From NCBI GenBank assembly GCA_035316325.1, contig DATHJB010000058.1, forward strand, positions 10,578-74,577: a DNA stretch of 64,000 nt, in the 5' to 3' direction. The position numbers and the translations under genes are program-made. The notes beneath the pieces were generated by a model. It was given only the letters and a program-made list of their open reading frames with translations. It had not been told where the DNA came from and did no database searches. Positions 1-36,505 of this stretch are shown one piece after another; within the stretch, counting starts at the first letter, position 1, and every line of letters begins with the position of its first letter. Origin of the DNA: Acidimicrobiales bacterium. GTDB taxonomy: Bacteria; Actinomycetota; Acidimicrobiia; Acidimicrobiales; VFJN01.

Positions 1-824
1 CCGCGGCCGGCGAAAGCGATGAGCACCAGCTCGGCCAGGGCCACGAAACCGGCGGCCTTGGAGAGCACCGACAGGAACGCCGTGATCGGCGTGGGCGCGC
101 CCTCGTAGGTGTCGGGCGCCCACGTGTGGAACGGCACCGCCGACACCTTGAACCCGAAGCCGACCACGCAGAACACGATGGCCAGCGTGACGACCGGCAG
201 GCTCTCGCCGCCGGACAGGGCGGCGCCGATGTCGGCCAGCTTCGTGCTGCCCGTCACCCCGTAGAGCAGCGACATGCCGTACAGCAGGACCGCCGTGGCG
301 AACACGCCCATCAGGTAGTACTTGGCGCCGGCCTCGTTGCCCTTCACGTCGTTCTTGCGCCAGCCGGCCAGCAGGTAGGCGGGGATCGACAGCAGCTCGA
401 GCGCCACGAAGATCGTGATCAGGTCGCGGGCCGAGGCGATCACGGTCATGCCGAGGATCGACGACAGCAGCAGGAAGTAGTACTCGCCCTCGGCGTAGTC
501 GCCCTCCGCGATGTAGTTGGTGGAGAGCAGGACCACCACGTAGCCCGACACCAGGAACAGGGCCTTGAGGACGAGGGCGAAGTTGTCGACCGCGTAGGCG
601 CCGCCGAACATCTCGCGGTCCATGCCGTCGACCGCCAGGGTCAGCACCGGGATGGCCGCGCCCAGCAGGCCCAGGCCGGCCAGCGACGGCACCAGCCCCT
701 TGCGGCCCTCGGGCAGGAAGAGGTCGGCCAGCAGGACGACGACCAGCGTGCCCGTGAGCACGAGCTCGGGCGCGAGGGCATGCCAGTCGAGCGTCGGGCT
801 GACGAACTCTTGCGCTGCGAACAT
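1..824 (-). CDS. nuoN: NADH-quinone oxidoreductase subunit N, set 1 (EFG-less operon). The 3' end runs off the window.
   Basis: Own reverse-strand translation from the ATG at 824-822 gives MFAAQEFVSPTLDWHALAPELVLTGTLVVVLLADL...FKVSAVPFHTWAPDTYEGAPTPITAFLSV. These are antiporter-like NuoN motifs. The frame stays open to position 1, so it is absent from the ORF track (no stop in the window). Confidence 0.85.
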   Translation of the reverse strand, partial: MFAAQEFVSPTLDWHALAPELVLTGTLVVVLLADLFLPEGRKGLVPSLAGLGLLGAAIPVLTLAVDGMDREMFGGAYAVDNFALVLKALFLVSGYVVVLLSTNYIAEGDYAEGEYYFLLLSSILGMTVIASARDLITIFVALELLSIPAYLLAGWRKNDVKGNEAGAKYYLMGVFATAVLLYGMSLLYGVTGSTKLADIGAALSGGESLPVVTLAIVFCVVGFGFKVSAVPFHTWAPDTYEGAPTPITAFLSVLSKAAGFVALAELVLIAFAGR

Positions 825-837
825 CGTTCAGATCCTT

Positions 838-882
838 TCTGTCTTCGCTGGGCCGGCCATGGCCGGGTGAGCGAAGACAGAA
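838..882. repeat. Palindromic intergenic repeat, family 1, copy A (nuoM/nuoN spacer)
   Basis: A 12-bp perfect outer stem, TCTGTCTTCGCT / AGCGAAGACAGA, encloses the perfect palindrome CCGGCCATGGCCGG. The reverse complement matches copy B at 38 of 43 positions. Confidence 0.85.
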
Positions 883-889
883 CGACGGG

Positions 890-2461
890 TTAAGGGGTGG
901 CGGTGGCGGCCAGGTCGACGAAGCGGCCGGCCAGCGCGCTGAGGTTGTCGTCGGTCACGCCGAACACCAGGTTCGGGAACACGCCGATCGCGAGGATCAG
1001 CACCAGCATCGGCGTCCAGGCGATCCACTCGGGGATCGAGACGTCGGGCACCTCTTCGTCGGCGAACTCGGCGGAGGGCGTGCCGAACGCGGTCCGCTGG
1101 TAGAGCCACAGCAGGTAGCCGGCGGCGAACACCGTGCCCACGGCGGCGATCACCATGTAGACCCGGAACAGCTCGTCGCTCAGGCCAGGTGCCGGCTGGT
1201 AGGCCGACAGGATCGCCGGGAACTCGCCCCAGAACCCCGCCAGGCCCGGCAGGCCCAGCGACGCCATCGCCGTGAAGCCGAGGATCCAGCCCAGCTTCGG
1301 CGCCTGCACCAGCAGACCACCCAGACGCTTGATCTCCAGCGTGTGGTAGCGGTCCTTCACCGAGCCGGCGGCGAAGAAGAGCATGCCGGTGATGAGGCCG
1401 TGGGCGACCATCCCCATGACCGCGGCGTTCAGGCCGAAGTCGGTGAGGGTGGCGATGCCCAGCATCGTGAAGCCCATGTGCGACACCGACGAGAAGGCGA
1501 TGAGCCGTTTCATGTCGGTCTGCGCCAGGCAGGCGAGCGCGCCGTAGATGATGCCGACGACCGCCAGCCCGCCGATCCACGGTGCCCACGACACCGCGGC
1601 CTCGGGCAGGATCGGCAGCGCCACCCGCACGAAGCCGTAGGTGCCCAGCTTCAGCAGCACCGCGGCCAGGATCACCGAACCGACCGTCGGCGCCTGCGTG
1701 TGGGCGTCGGGCAGCCAGGTGTGGAATGGGAACATCGGCACCTTGATGCCGAAGCCCATGAACATGCCGCCGAAGATGATCAGCATCGTGGTGTGGCTGA
1801 TCGGGTCGATGCCGAAGGCGCCCGGATCGGCCACGCGGGCAGCCAGTTCGGGGATGGCGAACGTCTCGCCGCCGGTGAGGAAGAACAGCGCCAGGAAGCT
1901 GACGATCATCAGCGCCGAGCCGAACAGCGTGTAGAGGAAGAACTTGAGCGACGCGTACTGGCGCTGCTCACCGCCCCACACGCCGATCAGGAAGTACATC
2001 GGCAGCAGCACGACCTCGAAGAAGACGAAGAACAGGATGAGGTCCTGCGCCACGAACGTGCCGAGCATCCCGGTGTGGAGCACCAGGATGAGCATGAAGA
2101 ACGCCTTGGCGTTGCGCGGCTCGGGGAGGTGGTTCCAGCTGTAGATGATGCACAGCGGCACGATCAGCAGGGTCAGCGCCACCAGCGGCAGCGACAGGCC
2201 GTCGATGCCGAGGAAGAACTTGGAGTTGATGACGTCGATCCAGTCCTTGCGGACCTCGAACTGCATGACGGACGTCTGGTCGTAGTCGAAGTCGGCGAAG
2301 ACGGCGACGCCGAAGGCCGCGGCACCGAGCGAGGCGCCCAGCGCGACGAGCTTGTGCGCCTCCTCGTTGGCCTTGGGGATCAGCAGCATGACCAGGGCGC
2401 CTGCCAACGGCAGGAACACCATCCCGGTCAGACCCCAATCGGTCAGGAACTCGTTGTTCAT
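890..2461 (-). CDS. nuoM: NADH-quinone oxidoreductase subunit M, set 1
   Basis: 523-aa ORF, polytopic membrane protein. It carries NuoM/Mrp-antiporter motifs (FFLGIDGLSLPLV, FFVFFEVVLLPMYFLIG, PMFPFHTWLPDAHTQAPT). It sits between nuoL and nuoN. Confidence 0.95.
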   Translation of the reverse strand: MNNEFLTDWGLTGMVFLPLAGALVMLLIPKANEEAHKLVALGASLGAAAFGVAVFADFDYDQTSVMQFEVRKDWIDVINSKFFLGIDGLSLPLVALTLLIVPLCIIYSWNHLPEPRNAKAFFMLILVLHTGMLGTFVAQDLILFFVFFEVVLLPMYFLIGVWGGEQRQYASLKFFLYTLFGSALMIVSFLALFFLTGGETFAIPELAARVADPGAFGIDPISHTTMLIIFGGMFMGFGIKVPMFPFHTWLPDAHTQAPTVGSVILAAVLLKLGTYGFVRVALPILPEAAVSWAPWIGGLAVVGIIYGALACLAQTDMKRLIAFSSVSHMGFTMLGIATLTDFGLNAAVMGMVAHGLITGMLFFAAGSVKDRYHTLEIKRLGGLLVQAPKLGWILGFTAMASLGLPGLAGFWGEFPAILSAYQPAPGLSDELFRVYMVIAAVGTVFAAGYLLWLYQRTAFGTPSAEFADEEVPDVSIPEWIAWTPMLVLILAIGVFPNLVFGVTDDNLSALAGRFVDLAATATP

Positions 2462-2485
2462 CGTCGGGAACCTTTGGCCTTGCTG

Positions 2486-4630
2486 TCAGATGAAGAGGAT
2501 GAGGGCGCCGGCGAACAGGGCGGTGGCGCCGAACAGGAGCGCGCCGTACTGCTGGACCTTGCCGGAGGTGAGGCGTCGGAAGAGCTGGCCGCCGCCTTCT
2601 GCGGCGAAGCCGGAGCCGTCGACGACGTTGTCGACGATCCCCTGGTCGATGCGGTTGTAGACGAAACGGCCGACCACGGTGGTGATGCGGCCGGCACCGT
2701 TGACGATGCCGTCGATCACGTTCTGGTTGACCCAGTTGGCGGCCCGGGCGATCGGGCCCTTGAAGGCACCGGCGATGCCGTCGGTGTAGAGGCGGTCGAA
2801 GTAGTACTTGTTCTCCAGCAGCGTGAAGCCGGCGCGGGCGGGGCGCGACCGCTGGGTGATGCCGTGGGGACCGGCGCCCTTCCAGAACCACAGGTACGCC
2901 AGGCCGATGCCGATCAGGCCGATCAGCGAGCTGAGGATGGCGATGCCCCAGCTGAACTCGGGGACGTCGAACACGGGGAGCACGCTCGGGAAGTAGGCAC
3001 CCTTGGGCTCGTAGAAGTGCTCGAAGCGCAGCTCGACGCTGTCGGGCGACAGGGCCGCGGGGAGGTTGGCGAAGCCGGCGACCACCGCGAGCCCGGAGAG
3101 GATGTAGAGCGGCGCCACGATCCGGGGCCCCGACTCGTGCGGGTGGCCATGACCGCGGTACTCGCCGAAGAACGTGAGGTAGACGACGCGGGTCATGTAG
3201 GCGGCGGTCATGAAGGCGCCGGTGATGCCCACGATCATGAACGCCGTGTAGTTCCCCTCGCCGCCGAGCTGGGCCGCGCCGGCGAGGATCTCGTCCTTCG
3301 ACCAGAAGCCGGCCAGCGGGAAGATGCCGATCAGCGCGGCGGTCGCCACGAGGAACGTCCGGTAGGTGTGCGGCATCCACTTGCGGAGGCCGCCCATGTC
3401 CTTCTTCATGTCGAAGCTGTGGACGGCGTGGCTCACCGAGCCGGAGCCGAGGAACAGGGAGGCCTTGAAGAAGGCGTGGGTGAAGAGGTGGAAGAACGCC
3501 GCGGTCCAGGCGCCGACGCCCAGCGCCATCACCATGTAGCCGAGCTGGCTGACCGTGGAGTAGGCGAGCACCTTCTTGATGTCGTTCTGGACGAAGGCGA
3601 GGAGGGCGCCGCCGATCACCGTGATGCCGCCGACGACGGCCAGGGCGTTCACGCTGGAGACGCCGATCTGGAGCCCCTCGAAGAACACCCCGTAGAGGCG
3701 GCCGACCATGTAGATGCCGGCGACCACCATCGTCGCCGCGTGGATCAGCGCCGAGACGGGCGTCGGGCCGGCCATGGCGTCGGGCAGCCAGGTGTGCAGG
3801 ATGAACTGGCCCGACTTCGACATCACCGCCGCGAGCAGGCTCAGGCTCGCCACGAGCAGGGCGAGGTGGGTGATGCTGCCGTCGAGCGCCCGGGCGTTGA
3901 TCTCCTCGATGTCGAACGTGTTCCCGGCGGCGAAGAAGAGGGTGATCACGCCGCACAGCAGGCCGACGTCGCCGACGCGGTTGGTGATGAACGCCTTCAG
4001 GGCGGCGTCGCTGTTGGGCTTCTCCTCCCACCAGTGGCCGATCAGCGCGAAGGAGCAGACGCCGACCAGCTCCCAGCAGACGATCAGCTGGAGGGTGCTC
4101 TTGGCCATGATCAGGCCGAGCATCGACGCCGTGAACAGGGAGAGGAAGGCGAAGAAGTGGGTGTAGCGGCGGTCGCCGGCGACGTAGTCGGTGGAGTAGA
4201 CGTGCACCAGCAGCGACACCAGCGTCACCACGAACAGCATCATCACCGCGGGGCCGTCGAGCAGCATCCCGACCTTGATGTCGACGCCGCCGTTCTGGAA
4301 CCAGGTGACCTCTTCGGTCACTGGCGGGACCTCGAAGTGGTGCCCGGCCTCCTCCTCTTCGGCGGCGAGGGCGACGGGGGCCGCGGACTCACCGGTGGCG
4401 AGGGCGTGCTCCTCCTCGACCACTTCCTCGGAGTGCTGCTCGGACTCGTGCTCGGCGTCGGCGACGTGGTCGAACCACTGGAAGTTGGTGACCAGGGCCA
4501 GCACGAAGGCGATGCCGACCGCGGCGATGCCGATCTCGCTGCCCTTGCGGGGCATCCGCTTGCCGAAGAACAGGATCAGGAAGAACGAGGCCGCGGGGAT
4601 GAGCGGGATGATCCAGGCGTTGTCGAGCAC
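2486..4630 (-). CDS. nuoL: NADH-quinone oxidoreductase subunit L, set 1, with an extra His/Glu-rich loop
   Basis: 714-aa ORF with a GTG start. NuoL motifs are present (WELVGVCSFALIGHWW, HTWLPDAMAGPTPVSALIHAATMV, long C-terminal helix region). An insert of roughly 45 aa after TM2 is absent from the second NuoL in the window. Confidence 0.95.
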   Translation of the reverse strand: MLDNAWIIPLIPAASFFLILFFGKRMPRKGSEIGIAAVGIAFVLALVTNFQWFDHVADAEHESEQHSEEVVEEEHALATGESAAPVALAAEEEEAGHHFEVPPVTEEVTWFQNGGVDIKVGMLLDGPAVMMLFVVTLVSLLVHVYSTDYVAGDRRYTHFFAFLSLFTASMLGLIMAKSTLQLIVCWELVGVCSFALIGHWWEEKPNSDAALKAFITNRVGDVGLLCGVITLFFAAGNTFDIEEINARALDGSITHLALLVASLSLLAAVMSKSGQFILHTWLPDAMAGPTPVSALIHAATMVVAGIYMVGRLYGVFFEGLQIGVSSVNALAVVGGITVIGGALLAFVQNDIKKVLAYSTVSQLGYMVMALGVGAWTAAFFHLFTHAFFKASLFLGSGSVSHAVHSFDMKKDMGGLRKWMPHTYRTFLVATAALIGIFPLAGFWSKDEILAGAAQLGGEGNYTAFMIVGITGAFMTAAYMTRVVYLTFFGEYRGHGHPHESGPRIVAPLYILSGLAVVAGFANLPAALSPDSVELRFEHFYEPKGAYFPSVLPVFDVPEFSWGIAILSSLIGLIGIGLAYLWFWKGAGPHGITQRSRPARAGFTLLENKYYFDRLYTDGIAGAFKGPIARAANWVNQNVIDGIVNGAGRITTVVGRFVYNRIDQGIVDNVVDGSGFAAEGGGQLFRRLTSGKVQQYGALLFGATALFAGALILFI

Positions 4631-4640
4631 GATCGGTCCC

Positions 4641-4985
4641 TCAGCCCTTCATGGCGTCGACGTCGTTGAGGTCGACGCTGTGGCGGTTGCGGTAGATGAT
4701 CAGGACGATCGCCAGGCCCACCCCGACCTCGGCGGCGGCGACGGCGATCACGAAGAGGGCGAACACGGAGCCGGTGATGTCGCCGAAGCGGGCGCCGAAG
4801 GCCAGCAGGTTGATGTTGACGGCGTTCAGGATCAGCTCGATCGACATCAGCACCATCACCGCGTTGCGGCGGGACAGCACCCCGTAGACCCCGATGCAGA
4901 ACAGCGCCGCGCCCAGCAGCAGGAACTGGTTGAGCATCAGGCCGTCGTTGCCGGCCGCGGCCTCCTGGACCTGTTGGGCGAGCAT
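4641..4985 (-). CDS. nuoK: NADH-quinone oxidoreductase subunit K, set 1
   Basis: 114-aa ORF with three TM helices and a NuoK core (LSRRNAVMVLMSIELILNAVNINLLAF). Its ATG overlaps the nuoJ stop (ATGA at 4985). An internal Met (MLNQF) is an alternative start. Confidence 0.9.
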   Translation of the reverse strand: MLAQQVQEAAAGNDGLMLNQFLLLGAALFCIGVYGVLSRRNAVMVLMSIELILNAVNINLLAFGARFGDITGSVFALFVIAVAAAEVGVGLAIVLIIYRNRHSVDLNDVDAMKG

Positions 4986-5542
4986 CAGCCGCGGTCCTTC
5001 CGTGCCAGGACGATGGCGCCGACCAGCGCGGCGGTGAGCAGCACCGACACCACCTCGAACGGGATCAGGTAGGTCGTGAAGATGGAATCGCTCAGCGTCG
5101 ACGTGTTGCTGGGGCCCGTGGCGTCGACGACGTTCTCGATCCGGATGTCGTCGGGCAGCTGCTCGTCACCCCAGTAGTCGATCAGGGCGTAGCCCATCAC
5201 CCCGACCAGCAGGACCGCCGTGGCCAGGCCCACCCACCAGTTGTCGTTGGTGAGGTCGACCTCGCGGCCGATCCGCGCCCGGGTGAGCATGATGCCGAAC
5301 AGCATCAGCACCATGATCGCCCCGATGTAGACGAGGATCTGGGTGACCGCCACGAACTCGGCGGCCAGCAGCAGGTAGATGCCGACGATGCTGGCGAACA
5401 CCGTGATCAGGTAGAGCGCCGCCCGCACCACGTTCTTGGTGGTCACCACCGCGATCGCCGCGCCGATGATCACCGCGGCCATCAGGTAGAAGAAGATGCT
5501 CTGGGCGACCGGGGTGCTCGCCACGAGGGCCGGGGCGCTCAT
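4985..5542 (-). CDS. nuoJ: NADH-quinone oxidoreductase subunit J, set 1
   Basis: Begins at the internal ATG at 5542 of ORF 4985..6043: MSAPALVASTPVAQSIFFYLMAAVIIGAAIAVVTTKNVVRAALYL... This is typical NuoJ. The upstream 167 codons of the ORF are an Arg/Pro/Ser-rich read-through overlapping nuoI. Confidence 0.85.
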   Translation of the reverse strand: MSAPALVASTPVAQSIFFYLMAAVIIGAAIAVVTTKNVVRAALYLITVFASIVGIYLLLAAEFVAVTQILVYIGAIMVLMLFGIMLTRARIGREVDLTNDNWWVGLATAVLLVGVMGYALIDYWGDEQLPDDIRIENVVDATGPSNTSTLSDSIFTTYLIPFEVVSVLLTAALVGAIVLARKDRG

Positions 5543-5620
5543 CGCTTCCCGCTCCTGGTGCTTCGCGCCGGGCCGCTCGGGCCACGCTCGCTCTGCGCCG
5601 GGCTTCGCTCGGGGGGCCTC
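5543..5620 (-). repeat. Dispersed GC-rich repeat, family 2, copy X (nuoI/nuoJ spacer)
   Basis: The minus strand reads ...GAGCGAAGCCCGGCGCAGAGCGAGCGTGGCCCGAGCGGCCCGGCGCGAAGCACCAGGAGCGGGAAGCG. It shares the exact 19-mer CGTGGCCCGAGCGGCCCGG and the exact 16-mer CCAGGAGCGGGAAGCG with copy Y. Confidence 0.8.
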
Positions 5621-5639
5621 GCTGCAGACGGATGCTCGC

Positions 5640-6194
5640 TCATCGCGGCACTTTCCGGGGCTTCTGGTCGGAGCCGGACTCGTAGGCCTCGAAGTCGGGC
5701 ACGGCCTGCATCCACTCGCCGAGGCGTTCCTTGTCGTGGAGCAGGTCGGCCAGGCGCAGCTCGGAGTACTCGTACTCGGGGCTCCAGAACATGGCGTCGA
5801 ACGGGCACACCTCGACGCAGATGCCGCAGTACATGCAGAGCGCGTAGTCGATGTCGAAGCGGTCGAGCTTGCTGACCGTGCGGGGCTTGCCCCCGGGTCG
5901 ACGCGGCGGGGCGGTGTCCTTGTGGCCCTCGATGTAGATGCACCAGTCGGGGCAGCTGCGCGCGCACAGCATGCAGACGGTGCAGTTCTCCTCCTTGAGG
6001 GCGATGACGCCGCGGGACCGGTTGGCCGGCGTCTCCTTCTCATGGGGGTACTGGACGGTGACCGCGCCCTTCGACGGGGCGGGGATCAGCGTCTTCAGGC
6101 CGCGCGCCGGGAACGTGGTCTTCACCATCGTCTTGAGGGTGACGCCCAGGCCCTTCACCAGCCCGGGAACCTTGGGAGCAGGAACCTTGCCCAT
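5640..6194 (-). CDS. nuoI: NADH-quinone oxidoreductase subunit I (2x[4Fe-4S]), set 1
   Basis: 184-aa ORF with two ferredoxin-type motifs: CTVCMLCARSCP and CMYCGICVEVCP. Confidence 0.95.
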   Translation of the reverse strand: MGKVPAPKVPGLVKGLGVTLKTMVKTTFPARGLKTLIPAPSKGAVTVQYPHEKETPANRSRGVIALKEENCTVCMLCARSCPDWCIYIEGHKDTAPPRRPGGKPRTVSKLDRFDIDYALCMYCGICVEVCPFDAMFWSPEYEYSELRLADLLHDKERLGEWMQAVPDFEAYESGSDQKPRKVPR

Positions 6195-6208
6195 CAGTGC
6201 ACGACCTT

Positions 6209-7255
6209 CTAGAACGCGACCTTGAGTGCCATGGTCGCCAGGATGTTGACCAGGGACAGCGGGATGAGGATCTTCCAGGCCAGCTGCTGCAGCTGGTCCT
6301 CCCGGAAGCGGGGGTACGTGAACCGCACCCAGAAGACCAGGAAGGCGACGAACATCATCTTCGCCAGCAGCACCACGGGGCCGACGACGTTCATCCAGTC
6401 GGCGCCGTTGTCGAGGAACGGGACGCTCCAGCCGCCGAGGAACAGCGTGGCGGCGACCGCCGAGAAGGCGCCGGCGCTGGCGAACTCGCCGATGAAGAAC
6501 AGCAGGAAGCGCAGGCCCGAGTACTCGGTCATGTAGCCGGAGACCAGCTCCGACTCGGCGACCGGCATGTCGAACGGCGTCTGCGTGAGCTCGGCCTGCA
6601 TGGCGATGAGGAAGATCAGGAAGCCGATCGCCTGCGTGATGATGAACGGGTTGCCGATGCCGCTCCAGCCGAAGATCTCACCGTCGGCCTGGGCGGCGAC
6701 GATGCCCTGCATGTTGAGGGTGCCGGCCTGGATCACCACGCCGACGACGGCCAGCACCATCGGCAGCTCGTAGGCGATCAGCTGGCCCGCGGCCCGGAGA
6801 CCGCCGAGCAGCGAGTACTTGTTGGCCGACGACCAGCCGGCCACGAGGATGCCGATCACGCTGACCGACGACACCGCCAGCACCCAGAAGATGCCGACGT
6901 TGAAGTCGACGAACCAGGCGTCGGGCCCGAACGGCACCACCAGGTACACCAGGAAGACCGAGGCGATCACGATGTACGGGGCGAAGGCGAACAGCCGGCG
7001 GTCGGCCCGCCAGGGGATGATGTCCTCCTTCTGGATGAACTTGCCGACCTCGGCCAGCAGCTGCAGCGAGCCGTAGGGGCCGGCCTCCATGGGGCCGAGG
7101 CGGCTCTGCATGAAGCTCATCATCTTGAAGAGGAAGACGTAGACGAACGTCCCGGCGGGCAGCAGCACGGCCAGGAGCACGGCGATGGAGCGCAGGCTGG
7201 TCTGCATCCACCAGGCCAGCTCGGCGAGGACGAGGGGGGCGGTCGTGGCGATCAT
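6209..7255 (-). CDS. nuoH: NADH-quinone oxidoreductase subunit H, set 1
   Basis: 348-aa polytopic ORF with NuoH/ND1 motifs (RLGPMEAGPYGSLQLLAE, ELTQTPFDMPVAESELVSGYMTEYSG). Its ATG overlaps the nuoD stop. Confidence 0.95.
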   Translation of the reverse strand: MIATTAPLVLAELAWWMQTSLRSIAVLLAVLLPAGTFVYVFLFKMMSFMQSRLGPMEAGPYGSLQLLAEVGKFIQKEDIIPWRADRRLFAFAPYIVIASVFLVYLVVPFGPDAWFVDFNVGIFWVLAVSSVSVIGILVAGWSSANKYSLLGGLRAAGQLIAYELPMVLAVVGVVIQAGTLNMQGIVAAQADGEIFGWSGIGNPFIITQAIGFLIFLIAMQAELTQTPFDMPVAESELVSGYMTEYSGLRFLLFFIGEFASAGAFSAVAATLFLGGWSVPFLDNGADWMNVVGPVVLLAKMMFVAFLVFWVRFTYPRFREDQLQQLAWKILIPLSLVNILATMALKVAF

Positions 7256-8424
7256 CGGTCGATGTCCCCGAGGATGAAGTAGAGGCTGGCGAGGATCGTG
7301 ATGATGTCGGGCACGTAGACGCCCTTCAGCATCCAGGGCAGCACCGAGACGTTGGAGAAGCTGGCCGTGCGGATCTTCACCCGGAACGGGCCGAGGTCGC
7401 CCTTGCTCACCACGTAGTAGCCCATCTCGCCCAGCGGGTTCTCGGTGGTGACGTAGGCCTCGCCCGCCGGCACCTTGATGATGCGGGGGACCTTGGCCAT
7501 GATCGGCCCGCCCGGCAGCTTGTCGCAGAGCTGGTCGACGATCTTGGTCGCCTCCCGGGTCTCCTGCAGGCGGACCCAGCAGCGGGCGAAGCTGTCGCCG
7601 TCGGGGTGGGTCCAGACCCGCCAGTCGACGTCGTCGTGGGCCAGGCCCACCTTTGTGTCGCGCCGCAGGTCCCAGTCGATGCCGGACGCCCGGGCGTTGG
7701 CACCGGTGAGGCCGTACGACAGGGCCACGTCGGCGGGGATCACGCCGACGCCGCGGGTGCGGGCCTCGAAGATCTCGTTGCCGAACAGCAGGTCCTCGAT
7801 CTCGTCGCAGAAGCCGCGCATGCGCTCCATGACGGCCTTGGTGTCGGCGATCCAGCCCTTGGGCAGGTCGTCCTTGAGGCCACCGATGCGGTCGAAGTTG
7901 GGGTGGAAGCGACCGCCGGTGACGGACTCGATCTGGTCGAGCACGTGCTCCCGGTCGCGGAAGGCGTAGAAGGCCGGGGTGACGGCGCCGAGCTGCACGC
8001 CAAGGTCGCCCAGGAACAGCACGATGTTGGCCACCCGGGCCATCTCGAAGAGGATCGTGCGGATGTACGTGGCCCGGGGCGGGGCCTCGATGTCCATCAG
8101 CTGCTCGGCGGCCAGGATGAACGGCACCTCGTTGGCGAAGCTGCCCAGCCAGTCGATGCGGTTCACCAGGGTGGTGACCTGCGGGTAGGTGCGGACCTCG
8201 CAGAGCTTCTCGTAGCCCCGGTGCATGTAGCCGGGGGCGACGTCGGCCCAGACGACCTGCTCGCCGTCGAGCTTGGCGATCACCCGGAGCGTGCCGTGGG
8301 TGGCGGGGTGCTGGGGGCCGAGGTTGAGGGTCATGCCCTCGTCGGTCTCCAGCTCGACGTTCACCCGCATGTCGGCGGCCTGCGAGTCGATGTAGGCCCG
8401 GGCCTGGCGGTCGGTGACGCTCAC
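7252..8424 (-). CDS. nuoD: NADH-quinone oxidoreductase subunit D, set 1
   Basis: The GTG at 8424 overlaps the nuoC stop (GTGA). The translation [11 protein letters not shown]...MTLNLGPQHPATHGTLRVIAKLDGE...FYFILGDIDR is typical NuoD. The rest of ORF 7252..9021 is upstream read-through. Confidence 0.9.
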   Translation of the reverse strand: MSVTDRQARAYIDSQAADMRVNVELETDEGMTLNLGPQHPATHGTLRVIAKLDGEQVVWADVAPGYMHRGYEKLCEVRTYPQVTTLVNRIDWLGSFANEVPFILAAEQLMDIEAPPRATYIRTILFEMARVANIVLFLGDLGVQLGAVTPAFYAFRDREHVLDQIESVTGGRFHPNFDRIGGLKDDLPKGWIADTKAVMERMRGFCDEIEDLLFGNEIFEARTRGVGVIPADVALSYGLTGANARASGIDWDLRRDTKVGLAHDDVDWRVWTHPDGDSFARCWVRLQETREATKIVDQLCDKLPGGPIMAKVPRIIKVPAGEAYVTTENPLGEMGYYVVSKGDLGPFRVKIRTASFSNVSVLPWMLKGVYVPDIITILASLYFILGDIDR

Positions 8425-9194
8425 TCGCCGCCTCCTTCCGCGGTCTCGTCGCCCTCGGCTTCGGCTTCGGTGGCCTCGGGGTCGTCCGACTCGGGCATCG
8501 GCTCCACGTCCACGATTCCTGGCCAGGGCTTCACCATCCGGGCCACCAGCGGGAAGTCCTTGCGGAGGGGGTGGCCCTCGAACCCGCCCGGCAGGTAGAG
8601 GTGGCGGAGGCCGGGGTGGCCGTCGAAGGTGATGCCGAACATCTCCCAGCACTCCCGCTCGTGCCAGTTGGCGCCGGCGAAGAGGCGGGTGAGGGTGGGG
8701 ACGCTGAACGGGTCCTCCGGCACGTCGGCCTTGATGATGACGCTGGTGTGCGTCTTCACGTTGGCCAGGCGGGTGAACACCTGGAAGCGGGTGTCGCCGC
8801 CGGCGTAGCCCTGCTCGATCGTGGCCGGGTCGACCTGCGGGATCCCCGGGGGAGCCGACGAGCCGTTGGTGCTGGGCGTGTCGAGGATGGCGTCCTCGTA
8901 GCGGCCCCACGGCGACGGCATCCAGTCGATCGCGGAGAGGAAGTCGAAGAACGTGCAGCCGAGCTTCACCTTGGCCAGCTCGACGGCCTCGACCCAGTCG
9001 GCCCGGTCGACCCGGACCCACAGCTCGCGGCCGGGGAGGATGTGGCTGCCGAGCAGCCGGTCGCCCAGCGCCTCGGTGAAGGTCGCGAGGAGGCCCTCAC
9101 GCACCTCGTCCTTCGGACCTTCCTCCGGTTCCTCGGCAGCTCCCTTGGTGCCGTCGGCTTCTGCGACGTCGGTGTCGCCCGTCGTGTCGCTCAT
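8421..9194 (-). CDS. nuoC: NADH-quinone oxidoreductase subunit C, set 1, with acidic N- and C-terminal tails
   Basis: The internal ATG at 9194 overlaps the nuoB stop (ATGA). The NuoC core is present ([33 protein letters not shown]). Confidence 0.9.
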
Positions 9195-9691
9195 TGGACG
9201 ACGATCGGGTCGCCGCGCCAGCGGGCCGCGGGGTCTTCGTGGCGGATCTTCTGCTGCAGCAGCACGATGCCCTCGAGCAGCGCCTCGGGGCGGGGCGGGC
9301 AGCCCGGCACGTACACGTCGACGGGGACGATCTGGTCGACGCCCTTGGTGACCGAGTAGCTGTCCCAGTAGGGCCCGCCGCAGTTGGTGCAGGAGCCCAT
9401 CGAGATCACGTACTTCGGGTCGGGCATCTGCTCGTAGAGCCGCTTGATCGACACGGCCATCTTGTCGGTCACCGTGCCGGAGATGACCACGAGGTCGGCC
9501 TGGCGCGGGCTGGCCGGCAGCGGGATGACGCCGAGGCGCATCACGTCGTAGCGGGGGCCGGCGAAGGCCGCGCCCATCTCGATCGCGCAACAGGCCAGGC
9601 CCCACTGGTAGCACCACATGCTGTAGCGGCGGCTCAGGTTGAGGAGCGTGGTGAGTGACTTCGGCAGCTTGCCGCTCTCGACGAGGCCCAT
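9191..9691 (-). CDS. nuoB: NADH-quinone oxidoreductase subunit B, set 1
   Basis: 166-aa ORF. The cluster N2 ligands are intact ([27 protein letters not shown]). Confidence 0.95.
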
Positions 9692-9739
9692 CTCAAGCGC
9701 TCGGGTTCTGTTGCATCGGGTTCATGGGATCGGTTCCCG

Positions 9740-10105
9740 TCAGGTCCAGCGGAGGACGTTCTTCTTCCAGGCGTACAGCAGGCCGAGGGCGAGGATCAGG
9801 ATGAAGACCCCCATCTCGACGAACCCGAACCAGCCGTAGGCCTCGGCTCGGGTGGCGTACGGGAAGACGAAGACAGCCTCGACGTCGAAGAGCACGAAGA
9901 GCAGAGCGAAGATGTAGTACCGGACCTGGCTCTGGGCCCAGCCGGACCCGACCGGGTCGACCCCGGACTCGTAGTTGATGTACTTCTCGGCCTGCGGCCG
10001 CACAGGGCGCAGGAGACGTCCGATGCCTAGCAGCGCGGCGACGAGGGCGGTCGAAACCCCCAGGAAAACGCCGGCTACGAGGTAGGAACGGAGCAGGTCC
10101 GACAT
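9740..10105 (-). CDS. nuoA: NADH-quinone oxidoreductase subunit A, set 1
   Basis: 121-aa ORF with three TM helices and NuoA motifs (YESGVDP, FDVEAVFVFPY). It is the first gene of the operon. Confidence 0.9.
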   Translation of the reverse strand: MSDLLRSYLVAGVFLGVSTALVAALLGIGRLLRPVRPQAEKYINYESGVDPVGSGWAQSQVRYYIFALLFVLFDVEAVFVFPYATRAEAYGWFGFVEMGVFILILALGLLYAWKKNVLRWT

Positions 10106-10118
10106 CGTCTCGGGAGAC

Positions 10119-10136
10119 TAGTGATCGTTTGCACGA
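10119..10136. promoter_or_regulatory. Rex-operator-like palindrome upstream of nuoA (set 1)
   Basis: The site TAGTGATCGTTTGCACGA matches 10 of 14 half-site positions of the Streptomyces ROP consensus TTGTGAA-N4-TTCACAA. It lies 14-31 nt upstream of the nuoA ATG, in a 71-bp intergenic gap. Confidence 0.3.
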
Positions 10137-10176
10137 GCGGTCTAACCATCCGTGGGTTTCTCCCCCTCCGGTGGTT

Positions 10177-14632: not shown

Positions 14633-15103
14633 GTGGGGCGTGTGATCGTGCAGGGGCTGGATGGGAAGGTGTGGACCGTCAGGCGGCGGTGGGCGCCGCG
14701 GCTGTTCGGGGACTCGCTCTGGAGCCGCCTCCGGCGTCGGGTCAAGGGCGCGATGCACCGGGGCGAGGCGGTGACGGACATCGGGGACGCGGGCTGCTTC
14801 CTCGACCTGTTCAGCGAGCTCGCCGTGGTGCTGGTGGTCGGCGTGGTCGTCTTCCTGGTGGTGTTCGTCGCGGTGCCGCTGCTGGTCGCCCTGCTCGACG
14901 TCGTGCTCGTGCTGCTCCTCACGGCGGGGAGCGTCGTGGGGCGGGTGGTGTTCCGGCGGCCGTGGACGGTCGAGGCCCGGGCCGACAACGGCACGTCGCA
15001 CACCTGGAAGGTGGTCGGATGGCGCGCCGCGCACGCCCACCGTGACGAGGTCGCCGCCAGCCTCGAGGCCGGCATCGTCCCCGCGGAGTCCGTCGTCGGC
15101 TAG
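14633..15103 (+). CDS. Hypothetical membrane protein (2 TM hairpin flanked by Arg/Trp-rich segments)
   Basis: 156-aa ORF with a GTG start and high GC3. The central hydrophobic block is LAVVLVVGVVVFLVVFVAVPLLVALLDVVLVLLL. Its stop overlaps the nuoN (set 2) stop (CTAG). Confidence 0.5.
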   Translation: MGRVIVQGLDGKVWTVRRRWAPRLFGDSLWSRLRRRVKGAMHRGEAVTDIGDAGCFLDLFSELAVVLVVGVVVFLVVFVAVPLLVALLDVVLVLLLTAGSVVGRVVFRRPWTVEARADNGTSHTWKVVGWRAAHAHRDEVAASLEAGIVPAESVVG

Positions 15104-16641
15104 CCCGAAGCGACGAGGACCGGGACGGCGTCCTGGGCCCAGCCGCTGATGGCGCCGGGCCACACACCGACGCCGATGGTGACGACGAGGCACAGCGTCA
15201 ACGCCACGCCCGCGCCCACAGAGACGGCCACACGGCCACCTTCGGGCGCCGCCTCCTCGTCGCCCATGTACATGGCGACGATGATGCGCAGGTAGAGGAA
15301 CGCCGCGATCACGGCGGCGACCATGGCGACGACCGCCAGCCAGGTCGACCCGGCGTCGACCGCCGCCGTGATCACGTAGAACTTGGCGAAGAACCCGGAC
15401 GTCAGCGGCACCCCGGCCTGGGCGAACAGGAACAGGGTCAACGCCAGCGCCAGCAGCGGGCGCTCCCGGCCGAGGCCCCGGTAGTCCTCCAGCGCGTGGC
15501 GGGCATCGCCCCGGCGGCCGACCAGTGTCACCACCCCGAACGTGCCGGCGACCATGAACGTGTAGGCGGCCAGGTAGAACAGCGCCGCCTGGACGCCGTC
15601 GTCGCTGGCGGCCTGCACACCGACCAGCACGTAGCCGGCGTGGGAGATCGAGCTGTAGGCCAGCATCCGCTTGACGTTCGTCTGCACGACCGCCAGCACC
15701 GAGCCCACCAGCAGCGTCGCCACGGCCAGGCCGAACAGCAGCGGCTGCCAGTCGACCGAGTAGGTCTGGAAGCCCACCACGAACACCCGGATCAGCCCGG
15801 CGAAGCCGGCGACCTTCACGCCGGACGCCATCCACGCCACCATCGGGGTGGGCGCGCCCTGGTAGACGTCAGGCGTCCAGAAGTGGAACGGGACGGCCGA
15901 CACCTTGAAGCCGAGGCCCACCAGCAGCAGCGCCAGGCCGGCGAAGACGAGGCCGTCGTTCTCCAGCACGCTGGTGCTGAACAGGCCCATGATCGTGGTG
16001 AGGTTGGTGGTGCCGGTGCCGCCGTAGATCAGGGCGATGCCGTAGAGCAGGAACGCCGAGGCGAACCCGCCGAGGATGAAGTACTTGAGGCCCGCCTCCT
16101 GCGACGTGACCCGGCGGAGGTGCAGCGCCGCCAGCACGTAGACGGCGATCGACAGGATCTCCAGGCCGAGGAACAGGACGATGAGGTCGTTGGCCTGGGA
16201 CATCACCACGCCGCCCGAGGCCGACAGCAGCAGCAGGACGTAGGCCTCCACGCCGTCGAGGCCCTCACGGCGCAGGTAGCCGTCGATCAGCAGGGCCGAC
16301 AGCACGACGCCCGACGCCAGCACGATCGTGGCGAACACCGAGAAGCCGTCGACGCCGAGGGCGCCGTCGAGGGTGGAGTAGGGGCCCCGGTCGCTGTCCT
16401 GCACCCGGTTCCACAGGTAGATCGCCAGGCCGATGGCGGTGATCGCCGAGGCCGACGTGATCAGGGCGTACGCGCCGGGGAACAGCCGCGACCGCACGAA
16501 CGACGTCAGCAGCATCAGCAGCAGCGCCCCGCCGACCAGGGCGAGCATCGGCCCCAGTGCCCACCAGTCGACGTGCGGCGTGTCGATCGGGGTGGGGTCG
16601 ACGGGTATCGGCTGGTTGAGGATGGCGAGCAGGGCGATCAC
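15100..16641 (-). CDS. nuoN: NADH-quinone oxidoreductase subunit N, set 2
   Basis: 513-aa ORF. Its GTG overlaps the nuoM stop. NuoN motifs are present (FKVSAVPFHFWTPDVYQGAPTP, KRMLAYSSISHAGY). Confidence 0.95.
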   Translation of the reverse strand: MIALLAILNQPIPVDPTPIDTPHVDWWALGPMLALVGGALLLMLLTSFVRSRLFPGAYALITSASAITAIGLAIYLWNRVQDSDRGPYSTLDGALGVDGFSVFATIVLASGVVLSALLIDGYLRREGLDGVEAYVLLLLSASGGVVMSQANDLIVLFLGLEILSIAVYVLAALHLRRVTSQEAGLKYFILGGFASAFLLYGIALIYGGTGTTNLTTIMGLFSTSVLENDGLVFAGLALLLVGLGFKVSAVPFHFWTPDVYQGAPTPMVAWMASGVKVAGFAGLIRVFVVGFQTYSVDWQPLLFGLAVATLLVGSVLAVVQTNVKRMLAYSSISHAGYVLVGVQAASDDGVQAALFYLAAYTFMVAGTFGVVTLVGRRGDARHALEDYRGLGRERPLLALALTLFLFAQAGVPLTSGFFAKFYVITAAVDAGSTWLAVVAMVAAVIAAFLYLRIIVAMYMGDEEAAPEGGRVAVSVGAGVALTLCLVVTIGVGVWPGAISGWAQDAVPVLVASG

Positions 16642-18382
16642 GGCGCAGATCCTTCCTCGGCCTCGGCCTCTTCGAGCTCGACGGGACCGTCGGCGGCGAT
16701 CGGCGGTTGCTCGTAGTCGCTGTTGTCCTCGACGTGGTTGATCAGGCGGTCGACCGCGGGCTCCATCCGTTCGAGGACCGGCTTGGGGTAGACGCCCAGG
16801 AACACGATCAGCCCGAGCAGCGGCGCCAGCACCATGCCCTCACGCCAGCTCAGCTCGGCGAAGCCCTTGTTCTCCTCGTCGGGCTCGCCGTGGAACACCC
16901 GCTGGTAGGCCCACAGCAGGTACACGGCGGCGAGGATCACGCCGGTGGCAGCGACGATCGCCCACCAGCGCCGGGTCAGGAACGACCCCACCAGCACCAG
17001 GAACTCGCCGACGAACCCGTTGAGGCCCGGCAGCCCGATCGACGACATCATCACCAGCGTGAACACCGCCGCGAAGATCGGCGCCACCTTCTGGATGCCC
17101 TTCAGCGCCGAGATCTCGCGGGTGTGGCGCCGGTCGGAGATCATCCCGACCAGGAGGAACAACGCTCCGGTGGACAGGCCGTGGTTGACGTTCTGGAGGA
17201 TGCCGCCCTGCAGGCCCTGGGTGGTGATGGCGAAGGTGCCCAGCACGATGAACCCGAGGTGGGCCACCGACGAGTAGGCCACCAGGCGTTTGAGGTCCTT
17301 CTGCATCGTCGCCACCACGGCGCCGTAGACGATGCCGATCACGCCCAACGTCACCAGGGTCGGGGCGAAGAACGTGGCCGCGTCGGGGAACAGGTACAAC
17401 CCGAAGCGGACCAACCCGTAAGTGCCCAGCTTCAGCAGCACCCCGGCCAGGATCACCGACCCGGCCGTGGGCGCCTCGGTGTGGGCGTCGGGCAGCCACG
17501 TGTGCAACGGGAACAGCGGCACCTTCACCGCGAACGCCAGGGCGAAGGCCAGGAAGATCCAGCGGGCCGCGGTCCAGTCGAACGGGTTGGCGCCGGCGTC
17601 GTTGTCGACGACGGTGCGCGACTCGGCGATCGTCACCAGGTCGAAGTCGAGCTTGGCGTCGCCCGACTGGAGCTCCTCGATCCGGGCCGACAGCGCCGAG
17701 TCGGCCTCGATGTCACCGCTGTTGGCCTGGGCGATCAGCTCCTGCGCCTCGGCCTCGTTGCGGTCGTTCATCGCGTCGCGGTGCAGGAACGCCAGGCTCA
17801 CGATGCCGACCAGCATCAACGCCGAGCCGAACATCGTGAACAGGAAGAACTTGAGCGCCGCGTACACCCGCTTGCCGTAGCCCCAGCCGCCGATGAGGAA
17901 GTACATCGGCACCAGCACGATCTCGAAGAACACGAAGAACAGGAAGAGATCGAGGGCCATGAACACCCCGAGGCAGCCGGCCTCGAGGATCAGCAGCCAG
18001 GCGTAGTACGCCTTCTGGTCGCGTTGTGGGGAGGTGCCGATCAGAGCGATCGGGAAGAGGAGGCCGGTCAGCACCACCAGGAACAGCGAGATGCCGTCGA
18101 TGCCGACGTGCCAGGAGATGCCGAAGTCGGCGATCCACGAGCGGTTGATCTCGAACTGGTAGCCGGCGTCGCCCTTGTCGAAGTCGGCCAGCAGGTAGAG
18201 GCTCAGCGCCCCGGCGCCGACGGAGAACAGCAGCGCCACCAGCCGGTGCAGCTCGGCCCGCCGGTTGGGGACCAGCGCGACGGCCAGCGCCCCGACGGCC
18301 GGCAGCGCCACGAGCGCGGTGAGGATCGGGAAGTCGGGCGCGGCATGTCCCGCGGCCTCGCTCGCCAGGACCAGGGTCGACA

Positions 18383-18383
<1 letters not shown>
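16638..18383 (-). CDS. nuoM: NADH-quinone oxidoreductase subunit M, set 2
   Basis: 581-aa ORF with NuoM motifs (FFVFFEIVLVPMYFLIG, PLFPLHTWLPDAHTEAPT). It has a soluble insert of about 75 aa (RDAMNDRNEAEAQELIAQ...). Its ATG overlaps the nuoL stop. Confidence 0.95.
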
Positions 18384-20287
<1,904 letters not shown>

Positions 20288-20308
20288 GGTTCCTGTTCCC
20301 TCGGTCCC

Positions 20309-20626
20309 TTATCCCTCGAGCAGCGCCAGGTCGTCGGCGGACGCCTCCGGCCGCTTGCGCAGCAGGGCGACGATGATCCCCAGGCCGACCACCACCTCGG
20401 CGGCGGCCACGACCAGCACGAACACCACCACGGTCTGACCGCCGATGTCGTTGAGCATCCGCGAGAACGTCACGAACGTGAGCGTGACCGCGTTGAGCAT
20501 CAGCTCGATGCACATGAACATCACCAGCGGGTTCCGGCGGACCAGCAGGCCGACGGCACCGATGCCGAACAGCAGCGACCCGAGCACCAGGTACCAGGCC
20601 GGCGTGACCTCCAGCGCGGCGAGCAT
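20309..20626 (-). CDS. nuoK: NADH-quinone oxidoreductase subunit K, set 2
   Basis: 105-aa ORF with three TM helices (RRNPLVMFMCIELMLNAV). Its ATG overlaps the nuoJ stop. Confidence 0.95.
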   Translation of the reverse strand: MLAALEVTPAWYLVLGSLLFGIGAVGLLVRRNPLVMFMCIELMLNAVTLTFVTFSRMLNDIGGQTVVVFVLVVAAAEVVVGLGIIVALLRKRPEASADDLALLEG

Positions 20627-21306
20627 CAGGCCTTCACTTCCTCGGACTCGGAGCCGGGCCCGGGTTCTTCGAGCTCGGCCTCGGACGGCGCGTCGTAGAC
20701 GTGCGCCCGGACCTCTGCTCTGTGGATGCGCTCGGCGATCTGCTCGGCGCGCTCCTCCTGGCCCGGGTCGACGATCTCGTCGGCCCGACGGGAGCGGCGG
20801 GCCAGCACCACGGCGCCGACCACCGCGATCACCAGCAGCACGGAGGTCAGCTCGAAGGCGAACACGTAGCGGGTGAACAGGGCGTCGCTGAGGACGTTGA
20901 TGTCGTAGGTGCCCTCGTCGGCCAGCGGGCCGACCCCGCTGGTGATGCCGGTGGCCTCGAAGTCGGTGCTGGCCAGGGCGGCGATCACCAGGCCGACCAC
21001 GCCGATGCCGAGCACCGCGGCGGCGATGCGCTGGCCGCCCAGCGGCTCGACCCGCAGGTCGTCGGCCTGGTCGACGCCCAGGAACATGATCACGAACAGG
21101 AACAGGACGACGATGGCGCCGGCGTAGACGATCACCTGCACGGCGGCCAGGAAGTGGGCCTCCTGGGCGATGAACAGCACGGCGATGCCGAACAGCGTCG
21201 CCACCAGCGACAGCGCCGCGTGCACCGGGTTCTTGCTGGCGACCACCCCGATGGCCCCACCCAGGCAGACCGTGCCGGCGACGCCAAATACGAACAGCTC
21301 GACCAT
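20626..21306 (-). CDS. nuoJ: NADH-quinone oxidoreductase subunit J, set 2
   Basis: 226-aa ORF. The NuoJ N-terminus is present (VVASKNPVHAALSLVATLFGIAVLFI). The C-terminal tail is acidic. Its ATG overlaps the nuoI stop. Confidence 0.9.
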   Translation of the reverse strand: MVELFVFGVAGTVCLGGAIGVVASKNPVHAALSLVATLFGIAVLFIAQEAHFLAAVQVIVYAGAIVVLFLFVIMFLGVDQADDLRVEPLGGQRIAAAVLGIGVVGLVIAALASTDFEATGITSGVGPLADEGTYDINVLSDALFTRYVFAFELTSVLLVIAVVGAVVLARRSRRADEIVDPGQEERAEQIAERIHRAEVRAHVYDAPSEAELEEPGPGSESEEVKA

Positions 21307-21992
21307 CAGTGATGCTCCCCCGCGTGCTCGTCGTCCGCGGGCTCCTCAGCAGGCTCCGGCTCCGACTCGGCAGGTGTGGCCGGGGCGTCGACCGACTGGC
21401 CCTGCTCCGCCGGCTTCACTCCGTAGCCCAGCTCGCCGGCCCAGGCGACGATCCCCTCGAACTCGGCAGCGCCGTTGGGAGCCGTGGCCCGCATCCACGC
21501 CGAGGTGTTGGCCTCGACCGCGTCGATGTCGGTCCAGTCCTCCCAGGGGAGCTGCTTCGGGCGGCCGTCGTCGCCCACCACCAGCTCCGCCTTCGTGTAG
21601 ATGGCGTCGCTGCGGTTGGTGAAGCTGAACTCGAACAGCTTCGACTCGGTGATCGCCTCGGTGGGGCACGCCTCCACGCACAGGTCGCAGTGGATGCAGC
21701 GCAGGTAGTTGATCTCGTAGATGAAGCCGTAGCGCTCGCCCGGCGACACCGGGTTGTCGAGCGGGTTGTCGGCCCCCCGCACGTAGATGCAGCGGGCGGG
21801 GCAGACACCGGCGCACAGCTCGCAGCCGATGCACTTCTCCATCCCGTCCTCGTAGCGGTTCAGCACGTGACGCCCGTGCAGGCGCTCGGGCTTCTCCCGC
21901 TTGCCACCCTCGTTCTTCACGTAGCTGCGGGTGAGGCGCGGGAACTCGAACAGCTTCTTGAACGTGACCCGGAACCCGTCGAGGTAGCCCAT
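21306..21992 (-). CDS. nuoI: NADH-quinone oxidoreductase subunit I, set 2
   Basis: Begins at the internal ATG at 21992 (overlapping the nuoH stop): MGYLDGFRVTFKKLF. The motifs CIGCELCAGVCP and CIHCDLCVEACP are present. A C-terminal extension of about 80 aa ends acidic. Confidence 0.9.
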   Translation of the reverse strand: MGYLDGFRVTFKKLFEFPRLTRSYVKNEGGKREKPERLHGRHVLNRYEDGMEKCIGCELCAGVCPARCIYVRGADNPLDNPVSPGERYGFIYEINYLRCIHCDLCVEACPTEAITESKLFEFSFTNRSDAIYTKAELVVGDDGRPKQLPWEDWTDIDAVEANTSAWMRATAPNGAAEFEGIVAWAGELGYGVKPAEQGQSVDAPATPAESEPEPAEEPADDEHAGEHH

Positions 21993-27949: not shown

Positions 27950-27952
27950 GTC

Positions 27953-36487: not shown

Positions 36488-36505
36488 TCGTGAAATCGCT
36501 CACAT
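36488..36505. promoter_or_regulatory. Rex-operator-like palindrome at the head of the bc/nuo super-operon
   Basis: The site TCGTGAAATCGCTCACAT matches 11 of 14 half-site positions of TTGTGAA-N4-TTCACAA. It lies in the 199-bp divergent region and abuts the GAGGAG Shine-Dalgarno of the first gene. Confidence 0.4.

Follow-up and report, generated by a model that had tools for sequence, protein, structure and literature searches.

The window analysed here, a stretch of 64,000 nucleotides from the genome of a member of the Acidimicrobiales (genome G000, an assembly of 6.37 Mb with 70% guanine plus cytosine (GC) and 96.8% completeness; contig C58, positions 10578-74577), carries two neighbouring nuo operons encoding respiratory complex I or a relative of it, and the one nearest to the window start, here called set 1, is the subject of this analysis. 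Positions are window coordinates unless a contig is named. Set 1 lies on the minus strand and consists of 11 consecutive open reading frames whose Pfam assignments correspond to NuoA-D and NuoH-N, namely nuoA (9740-10105; 121 amino acids (aa); Oxidored_q4, E 2.6e-34), nuoB (9191-9691; 166 aa; Oxidored_q6), nuoC (8421-9194; 257 aa; Complex1_30kDa), whose start overlaps the stop codon of nuoB by ATGA, nuoD (7252-8418; 388 aa; Complex1_49kDa), nuoH (6209-7255; 348 aa; NADHdh, E 2.5e-102), nuoI (5640-6194; 184 aa; Fer4 families), nuoJ (4985-5542; 185 aa; Oxidored_q3), nuoK (4641-4985; 114 aa; Oxidored_q2), nuoL (2486-4630; 714 aa; Proton_antipo_N and Proton_antipo_M), nuoM (890-2461; 523 aa; likewise with its Pfam family) and nuoN (1-824). 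An earlier reading of this DNA by a model that saw the letters only (the sequence-only reading) had taken all eleven genes as intact, which is correct for ten of them in the window, while nuoN is represented there by the first 274 of its 499 codons (3-824), its frame being open at the window edge; the gene is complete in the contig (499 aa, C58:9902-11401, of which C58:9902-10577 precedes the window). The stop codon of nuoD and the ATG of nuoH share the ATGA at 7252-7255, as had been read before, and because of this overlap no nuoE, nuoF or nuoG can lie between the two genes. Set 1 is therefore an 11-subunit relative of complex I without the NADH-oxidising module (N-module).

The translations retain the motifs for cofactor binding and for proton pumping. 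NuoB has the tandem-cysteine motif CC...C...C that provides the ligands of cluster N2, and NuoI has two CxxCxxCxxxCP motifs, CTVCMLCARSCP and CMYCGICVEVCP, for its two [4Fe-4S] clusters, both in agreement with the sequence-only reading. At the level of motifs, the conserved charged membrane residues are retained in NuoK, NuoL, NuoM and NuoN: NuoK keeps both membrane glutamates (SIELIL and AAAEVG), and alignment of NuoM to Paracoccus Nqo13 (8qby_M) recovers the Glu of transmembrane helix (TM) 5, the Lys of TM7 and TM8 and the Glu of TM12 in the motifs FFE, GIKVP, LLKLG and FWGEF. NuoL reaches 566.7 bits with the NCBIfam NuoL model, over its cut-off of 556. NuoD has no cysteine pairs, reading GYMHRGYEKL in its N-terminal region and FILGDIDR at its C-terminus, and it matches the membrane-bound hydrogenase subunit 6cfw_L with 146 bits versus 325 bits for Nqo4; lacking the NiFe-ligating cysteine pairs, set 1 is not a membrane-bound hydrogenase. 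Two subunits bear acidic additions. Near the N-terminus of NuoL there is a His- and Glu-rich acidic insert of about 50 aa (residues ~54-105), which accounts for much of the length difference from the second NuoL of this genome, and some relatives align only from residue ~102. NuoC carries acidic N- and C-terminal tails, the C-terminal one being conserved in composition (net charge -4 to -8) within Acidimicrobiia only and absent from loci L026 and L027 and from the non-actinobacterial 11-subunit enzymes. The suggestion that these tails are docking surfaces was rejected as a general explanation, since their conservation stops at Acidimicrobiia and nothing points to docking. In locus L028 (G082:C1), the NuoC of the 11-gene operon has a C-terminal extension of ~300 aa with a net charge of about -50.

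The second operon, set 2 (15100-30822, minus strand), is a canonical 14-gene nuoA-N with the Pfam domains of NuoE, NuoF and NuoG, and it is the only nuo operon of the genome to have them; no third nuo cluster was found in the assembly. It lies upstream of set 1, with a gap of 4994 bp between its nuoN and nuoA of set 1, so that the previous description of a complete nuoA-N about 5 kb away, on the same strand and clearly divergent, is borne out. Subunit by subunit the two sets are 34-48% identical, NuoL measuring 714 versus 634 aa and NuoC 257 versus 161 aa, and NuoD of set 2 is closest to NuoD of M. smegmatis (456 bits). Between the operons there are genes for an extracytoplasmic function (ECF) sigma factor, a Pro-rich membrane protein and an XRE/DUF5753 regulator. 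Two further genes adjoin nuoA of set 2 on its upstream side (30826-33089, minus strand); the product of one, 310 aa long, matches no Pfam family, and that of the other, 444 aa long, has a cytochrome c domain.

Set 1 is strongly conserved. Orthologues of its NuoD, 75-94% identical, occur in 13 families of Acidimicrobiales, and most of those genomes possess a second NuoD of ~40% identity which, where it is on the same contig, is ~18-30 kb away. Across 12 Acidimicrobiales genomes that were fetched the order A-B-C-D-H-I-J-K-L-M-N is invariant, with identities of 83-88% for NuoB, 78-90% for NuoD, 65-82% for NuoM and 48-66% for NuoC. The same operon is present in named Ilumatobacter, Microthrixaceae, Aquihabitans (locus L035, arranged identically), Candidatus (Ca.) Poriferisodalis and Ca. 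Actinomarina, and a contiguous 11-gene operon downstream of the nuoN of a 14-gene operon recurs in a further order of the class as well as in three additional lineages of actinobacteria, with identical gene order in all contiguous loci sampled and with an operon-to-operon gap as small as ~170 bp in locus L024. Such conservation together with an invariant gene order indicates purifying selection and therefore an operon that is not decaying. In several Actinomycetes, including Streptomyces-like genomes, a gene of the set 1 NuoD type (NuoD1) stands alone, in agreement with the literature on nuoD2. Genome G268 has a complete operon of this type as its sole complex I, and NuoF is nowhere to be found in that 96%-complete genome.

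The phylogenetic placement proposed with the sequence-only reading was carried out for NuoD on a tree of 80 sequences, with branch supports from the Shimodaira-Hasegawa-like approximate likelihood ratio test (SH-aLRT); the comparison with Fpo was made through NCBIfam model scores. The actinobacterial NuoD proteins of set 1 type form one clade (SH-aLRT 99), which broadly tracks taxonomy from Acidimicrobiia and other classes to Streptomyces, Nocardioidaceae, Intrasporangiaceae and Micromonosporaceae. Its sister is the NuoD of the 11-subunit enzymes of Dehalococcoidia (SH-aLRT 88), and it groups with NdhH and with the 11-subunit enzymes of Bacillaceae, Acidobacteria and NC10 in a supergroup that is split from canonical NuoD, represented by the genome's own NuoD2 and Thermus Nqo4, with SH-aLRT 97. 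In each of the 21 non-actinobacterial relatives the gene after nuoD is nuoH or nuoI, and the locus lacks nuoEFG. Among solved structures NuoD of set 1 matches Thermus Nqo4 first (325 bits) and then cyanobacterial or chloroplast NdhH (294 bits), and it is more distant from every one of them than the genome's own NuoD2 is from M. smegmatis NuoD; among the NCBIfam models the PRK12322 type (366 aa) fits it best, with a match over the full length. Set 1 is not an unusual local duplication. It represents an ancient and vertically inherited actinobacterial trait that has been described before (PMC7771536; bioRxiv 10.1101/2021.02.01.429150), and to the same clade belong the nuo2 genes of Streptomyces and, in Ca. 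Actinomarinales, the truncated nuo cluster. A different 11-subunit operon is the sole NuoD locus in two actinobacterial genomes of family f33 (loci L120 and L121 of G041 and G071), with a NuoD of Tyr/Asp type (GYLHRCQEK ... RLDY) that resembles the NuoD of NC10.

One feature that sets this clade apart is its quinone site. In the numbering of T. thermophilus (structure 4HEA), His38 and Tyr87 ligate the quinone head group and Asp139 is paired to His38. HMMER alignments to 2fug_4 and 6hum_H make His41, Arg67, Trp90 and Gln142 of NuoD in set 1 the equivalents of Nqo4 His38, residue 64, Tyr87 and Asp139, so that His38 is kept, Tyr87 is replaced by Trp and Asp139 by Gln, and the canonical signature of the site is not present. 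The change is shared by the whole clade: among 105 aligned sequences Trp occupies position 87 in 81 of 81 actinobacterial proteins, with Glu or Gln at position 139 in 80 of the 81, and the remaining 24, comprising non-actinobacterial 11-subunit enzymes, NdhH, Nqo4 and the genome's own NuoD2, have Tyr and Asp. Tyr87 is found in all 21 of the non-actinobacterial 11-subunit relatives sampled. Since both residues are lost in the clade, normal quinone reduction by set 1 is an assumption, and a pocket built with Trp and Gln or Glu would imply an acceptor chemistry that is not strictly canonical. No prior mention of this clade-wide replacement was found in the literature.

A second trait of the clade concerns a methyltransferase. 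The gene that follows nuoN of set 1 lies outside the window, shortly before its first position, and encodes a MidA/NDUFAF7-like S-adenosylmethionine-dependent methyltransferase (C58:8763-9900, minus strand; Pfam Methyltransf_28, 107 bits). A Methyltransf_28 gene follows nuoN in 26 of the 41 operon loci that have enough flanking sequence, and in Streptomyces, Micromonospora, Dactylosporangium and others a MidA-like gene is situated a few hundred bases from the solitary nuoD2. Among 301 Actinomycetota genomes 90 have both the methyltransferase and the 11-subunit operon with Trp-type NuoD (Nuo11), 42 Nuo11 only, 10 the methyltransferase only and 159 neither, an association with an odds ratio of 34 that is uncorrected for phylogeny; the family is thus nearly confined to Actinomycetota genomes with Trp-type NuoD (90 of 100). 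By numbering, with the offset checked on alignments, the Arg of the GYMHRG motif corresponds to Arg85 of mammalian NDUFS2. The latter residue is the target of NDUFAF7. NuoD1-type proteins have this Arg, and Thr takes its place in the genome's own NuoD2 and in Nqo4. Arg methylation of NuoD in this clade by a co-inherited NDUFAF7/MidA-like enzyme is therefore probable. A search for NDUFAF7 homologues beside Streptomyces nuoD2 yielded no paper, and we found no earlier mention in the literature of the co-distribution of the methyltransferase with this NuoD type, which extends to genomes with a solitary nuoD2.

Set 1 also appears to have its own promoter. The region 10106-10176 (minus strand) contains a -10-like TAGTCT and, within 10119-10136, a Rex-like palindrome, GTGCAAACGATCAC. 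Relatives show TTTGGC, ~18 nt and TAGGCT upstream of nuoA, with TAGGCT 8-10 nt 5' of the start codon, a distance which suggests that the nuoA transcript may be leaderless, and a palindrome of the form GTG-N8-CAC, similar to a Rex operator, is found between the hexamers in many of these relatives, a near-perfect site being TTGTGATAATTTTCACAA in locus L057. A promoter-like architecture was likewise observed in loci L010, L012, L014, L017, L021, L035, L039, L042, L043 and L057. The site upstream of nuoA in the present genome has 4 mismatches to the consensus TTGTGAA-N4-TTCACAA and gains weight only because it is conserved in relatives; a search of the window with that consensus and up to 3 mismatches gave a single weak site at 36488 and no above-chance signal. 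The N-terminal domain of a Rex-type repressor is encoded in the window itself (~58302-58448, minus strand; C58:68879-69025; Pfam Put_DNA-bind_N, 68.7 bits). A conserved own promoter with a Rex-like palindrome has, as far as the literature was searched, no prior mention.

How electrons enter an enzyme of this kind is the central question, and the statement of the sequence-only reading that no donor can be assigned agrees with the literature for all non-photosynthetic 11-subunit enzymes (PMC3144371, PMC11238625). The best overall explanation, put forward tentatively, is a ferredoxin-driven, menaquinone-reducing and proton-pumping enzyme. Set 1 would be transcribed from its own promoter, and in place of an NADH module of its own a soluble carrier would deliver low-potential electrons to the exposed outer cluster of NuoI, from where they could pass along the iron-sulfur chain of NuoI and NuoB to N2, with reduction of menaquinone and pumping of protons. 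The donor may most readily be reduced ferredoxin, for instance from the two 2-oxoacid:ferredoxin oxidoreductases (POR_N genes) that the genome encodes. Input from ferredoxin is the mode of cyanobacterial NDH-1 and of Fpo without FpoF. As a donor, ferredoxin has also been proposed for the 11-subunit enzyme of Desulfitobacterium (PMC11238625). Several observations weigh against this explanation: a ferredoxin gene linked to the operon is absent; the replacement of Tyr87 by Trp and of Asp139 by Glu or Gln removes both quinone-protonating residues of canonical complex I; a link to NADH would also be compatible with the Rex-like operator and with the conserved location of set 1 in tandem after the 14-gene operon; and a conserved orphan protein of FpoF/FrhB type offers a rival input.

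This orphan, which emerged from the search for fpoF-like genes that had been recommended, does not settle the donor, and it is the basis of a less likely possibility, namely that set 1 is an F420H2:menaquinone oxidoreductase, a bacterial counterpart of Fpo/Fqo in which the orphan docks on the NuoI face. Its gene (G000:C210, ~1320-2480, minus strand) encodes 387 aa with a 2 x [4Fe-4S] ferredoxin domain, FrhB_N and FrhB_C, which amounts to the full FpoF architecture, residues 26-367 aligning to 6-317 of the 337 positions of the NCBIfam FpoF model; on the other hand, the scores are far under the equivalog cut-offs (124 versus 475 bits for FpoF, 191 versus 269 bits for FrhB). The protein is 75-93% conserved in Acidimicrobiales, and its gene is monocistronic with no catalytic partner adjoining, although it is not linked to set 1 either and its neighbourhood, a divergently transcribed LCP-family gene, is uninformative. 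Unlinked fpoF of Methanosarcina is a precedent for a detached F420-oxidising subunit. The solved structures nearest to the orphan (8riu, 8rja) are F420 reductases that serve as plug-in modules of other iron-sulfur enzymes (PMC11493965). CofE scores over its cut-off, which makes synthesis of F420 probable, and a role of F420 has been suggested in print for Ca. Actinomarinales (PMC7771536). Over the 301 Actinomycetota genomes the FrhB-like gene and Trp-type Nuo11 co-occur with counts of 96 (both), 36 (Nuo11 only), 38 (FrhB-like only) and 131 (neither), an odds ratio of 9.2 that is likewise uncorrected for phylogeny, and G268 has an FrhB-like gene. Genomes of family f33, of which the two inspected have the other 11-subunit type, carry FrhB-like genes as well. 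The correspondence is nonetheless partial: an FrhB-like gene is missing from entire lineages with the operon, namely families f18, f20, f21 and f22 of the same class, f66, and the f41 genomes, which match named Streptomyces on the NuoD tree, while G199 has two FrhB-like copies and no Nuo11. No prior mention of the partial co-occurrence of this orphan type with this NuoD type was found in the literature. An NADH-dependent isoenzyme, either with NuoEFG of set 2 serving the quinone-module and membrane arms of both sets or with single subunits such as NuoL or NuoM swapped between the sets, is improbable. Same-strand proximity of the two operons extends from Acidimicrobiia to at least three further lineages of actinobacteria, many relatives have the Rex-like palindrome overlapping the promoter of set 1, a rex gene lies in the window, and subunit swapping has already been proposed for Streptomyces (PMC3765725, PMC8388888). 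Against this, G268 encodes the same enzyme type without NuoF, the sampled members of the supergroup all lack nuoEFG at the locus, a promoter of its own is predicted for set 1, and an identity between sets of just 34-48% makes interchangeable interfaces unlikely. A solitary NuoF-like gene (G000:C133:8122-9537, plus strand; Complex1_51K, SLBB and NADH_4Fe-4S, with no NuoE or NuoG adjoining) was considered as a dedicated input and rejected; it is unlinked, stands between a sigma-factor gene and nadD, and has likely, low-scoring counterparts in genomes without Nuo11 (G199, G245). That set 1 might be a silent or decaying duplicate, which together with sharing of NuoEFG had been named as what would speak against a separate enzyme, is very improbable: no supporting evidence was found, the operon has no internal stops and retains all cofactor and pumping motifs, 13 families share its NuoD at 75-94% identity, gene order is invariant, transcription has been reported for the orthologues in Streptomyces (PMC3765725), and G268 has this type as its only complex I.

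Reduced ferredoxin is thus the leading, if tentative, candidate donor, followed by F420H2 through the orphan module as a doubtful one and by shared NuoEFG as the least probable of the three. A broader proposal, in which set 1 would be no simple ferredoxin-driven version of complex I but a distinct enzyme with a re-engineered acceptor pocket, obligatory Arg methylation of NuoD by the NDUFAF7 homologue and, in many lineages, an unlinked FpoF-like F420H2 module, is unlikely as a whole; if true, it would describe the first energy-conserving bacterial F420H2:menaquinone oxidoreductase, or a complex with altered or reversed quinone chemistry. Since at least 2011 the question has stood open which donor serves non-photosynthetic 11-subunit complex I, and the window does not close it. 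What the comparative analysis adds are handles, in the form of the residue change, the NDUFAF7 homologue and the FpoF-like candidate, in a phylum with cultured and tractable members such as Streptomyces, Aquihabitans and Ilumatobacter. A proven function of either the altered quinone site or the connection to F420 would change the view of actinobacterial respiration and of F420 physiology; failing both, set 1 would be no more than the second nuo cluster that Actinobacteria commonly have.

Comparison with known systems places set 1 closest to Ca. Actinomarinales of the same class, in which two neighbouring nuo clusters, one of them without EFG and with F420 suggested, have been described (Lopez-Perez et al. 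2020, PMC7771536), as has an 11-subunit operon followed by NDUFAF7 with a 14-subunit variant nearby (Bulzu et al. 2021, bioRxiv 10.1101/2021.02.01.429150). These organisms share with the present genome the orthologous nuoABCDHIJKLMN close to a 14-gene nuo and the NDUFAF7 gene after it, and in the Ca. Actinomarina genome at locus L052 NuoD falls in the same Acidimicrobiia branch with the same gene order. They differ in having heliorhodopsin and iron-uptake genes between the operons, where sigma-factor, membrane-protein and XRE genes are found here, and the present genome, at 6.4 Mb and 70% GC, is not streamlined. A literature search that combined Acidimicrobiia with nuoEFG found no paper. The mention in the sequence-only reading of partial nuo clusters in Streptomyces proved right: nuo2 (nuoA2, B2, D2, H2-N2) is without an N-module (Moody et al. 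2013, PMC3765725; PMC8388888). Its NuoD belongs to the same clade with the same Trp/Glu/Arg signature and an associated MidA-like gene, but nuoD2 is detached beside that gene and nuoC2 is not listed, whereas all 11 genes are contiguous here.

Outside this clade the likeness is one of composition. Moparthi and Hagerhall (2011, PMC3144371) listed the 11-subunit enzyme in actinobacteria and sought a partner protein, which was not found. The enzymes of Bacillus cereus, Desulfitobacterium and Dehalococcoidia have the same genes in the same order, lack nuoEFG and fall in the same supergroup (PMC3144371; Willemin et al. 2024, PMC11238625), and for that group ferredoxin is favoured as donor (PMC11238625); they differ in keeping Tyr87 and Asp139, in the lack of a MidA-like gene at the locus and in usually being the organism's only complex I. 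Cyanobacterial and chloroplast NDH-1 (PDB 6hum) shares 11 homologous core subunits, the absence of an N-module and an Arg in the HRG motif. Unlike set 1 it has Tyr and Asp at the quinone site, and NuoD of set 1 scores 329 bits versus an NdhH equivalog cut-off of 583. NDH-1, a ferredoxin:plastoquinone oxidoreductase, has in addition oxygenic-specific subunits (NdhL-S, V) for the binding of ferredoxin. Archaeal Fpo/Fqo (Methanosarcina mazei, Archaeoglobus) has the 11-subunit core and an F420-oxidising FpoF that can be encoded elsewhere, to which the FpoF/FrhB-like orphan would correspond in this genome, which also has CofE, although the acceptor would be menaquinone and not methanophenazine, and set 1 misses all NCBIfam Fpo cut-offs (FpoD 320.9 versus 600, FpoC 48 versus 220, FpoI 46 versus 180, FpoL 382 versus 1050). 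In conclusion, set 1 belongs to a described, phylum-wide actinobacterial trait and is largely ordinary when set beside these systems; its main interest lies in what we infer of the clade-specific change of the quinone site, the putative NDUFAF7 link and the FpoF-like lead.

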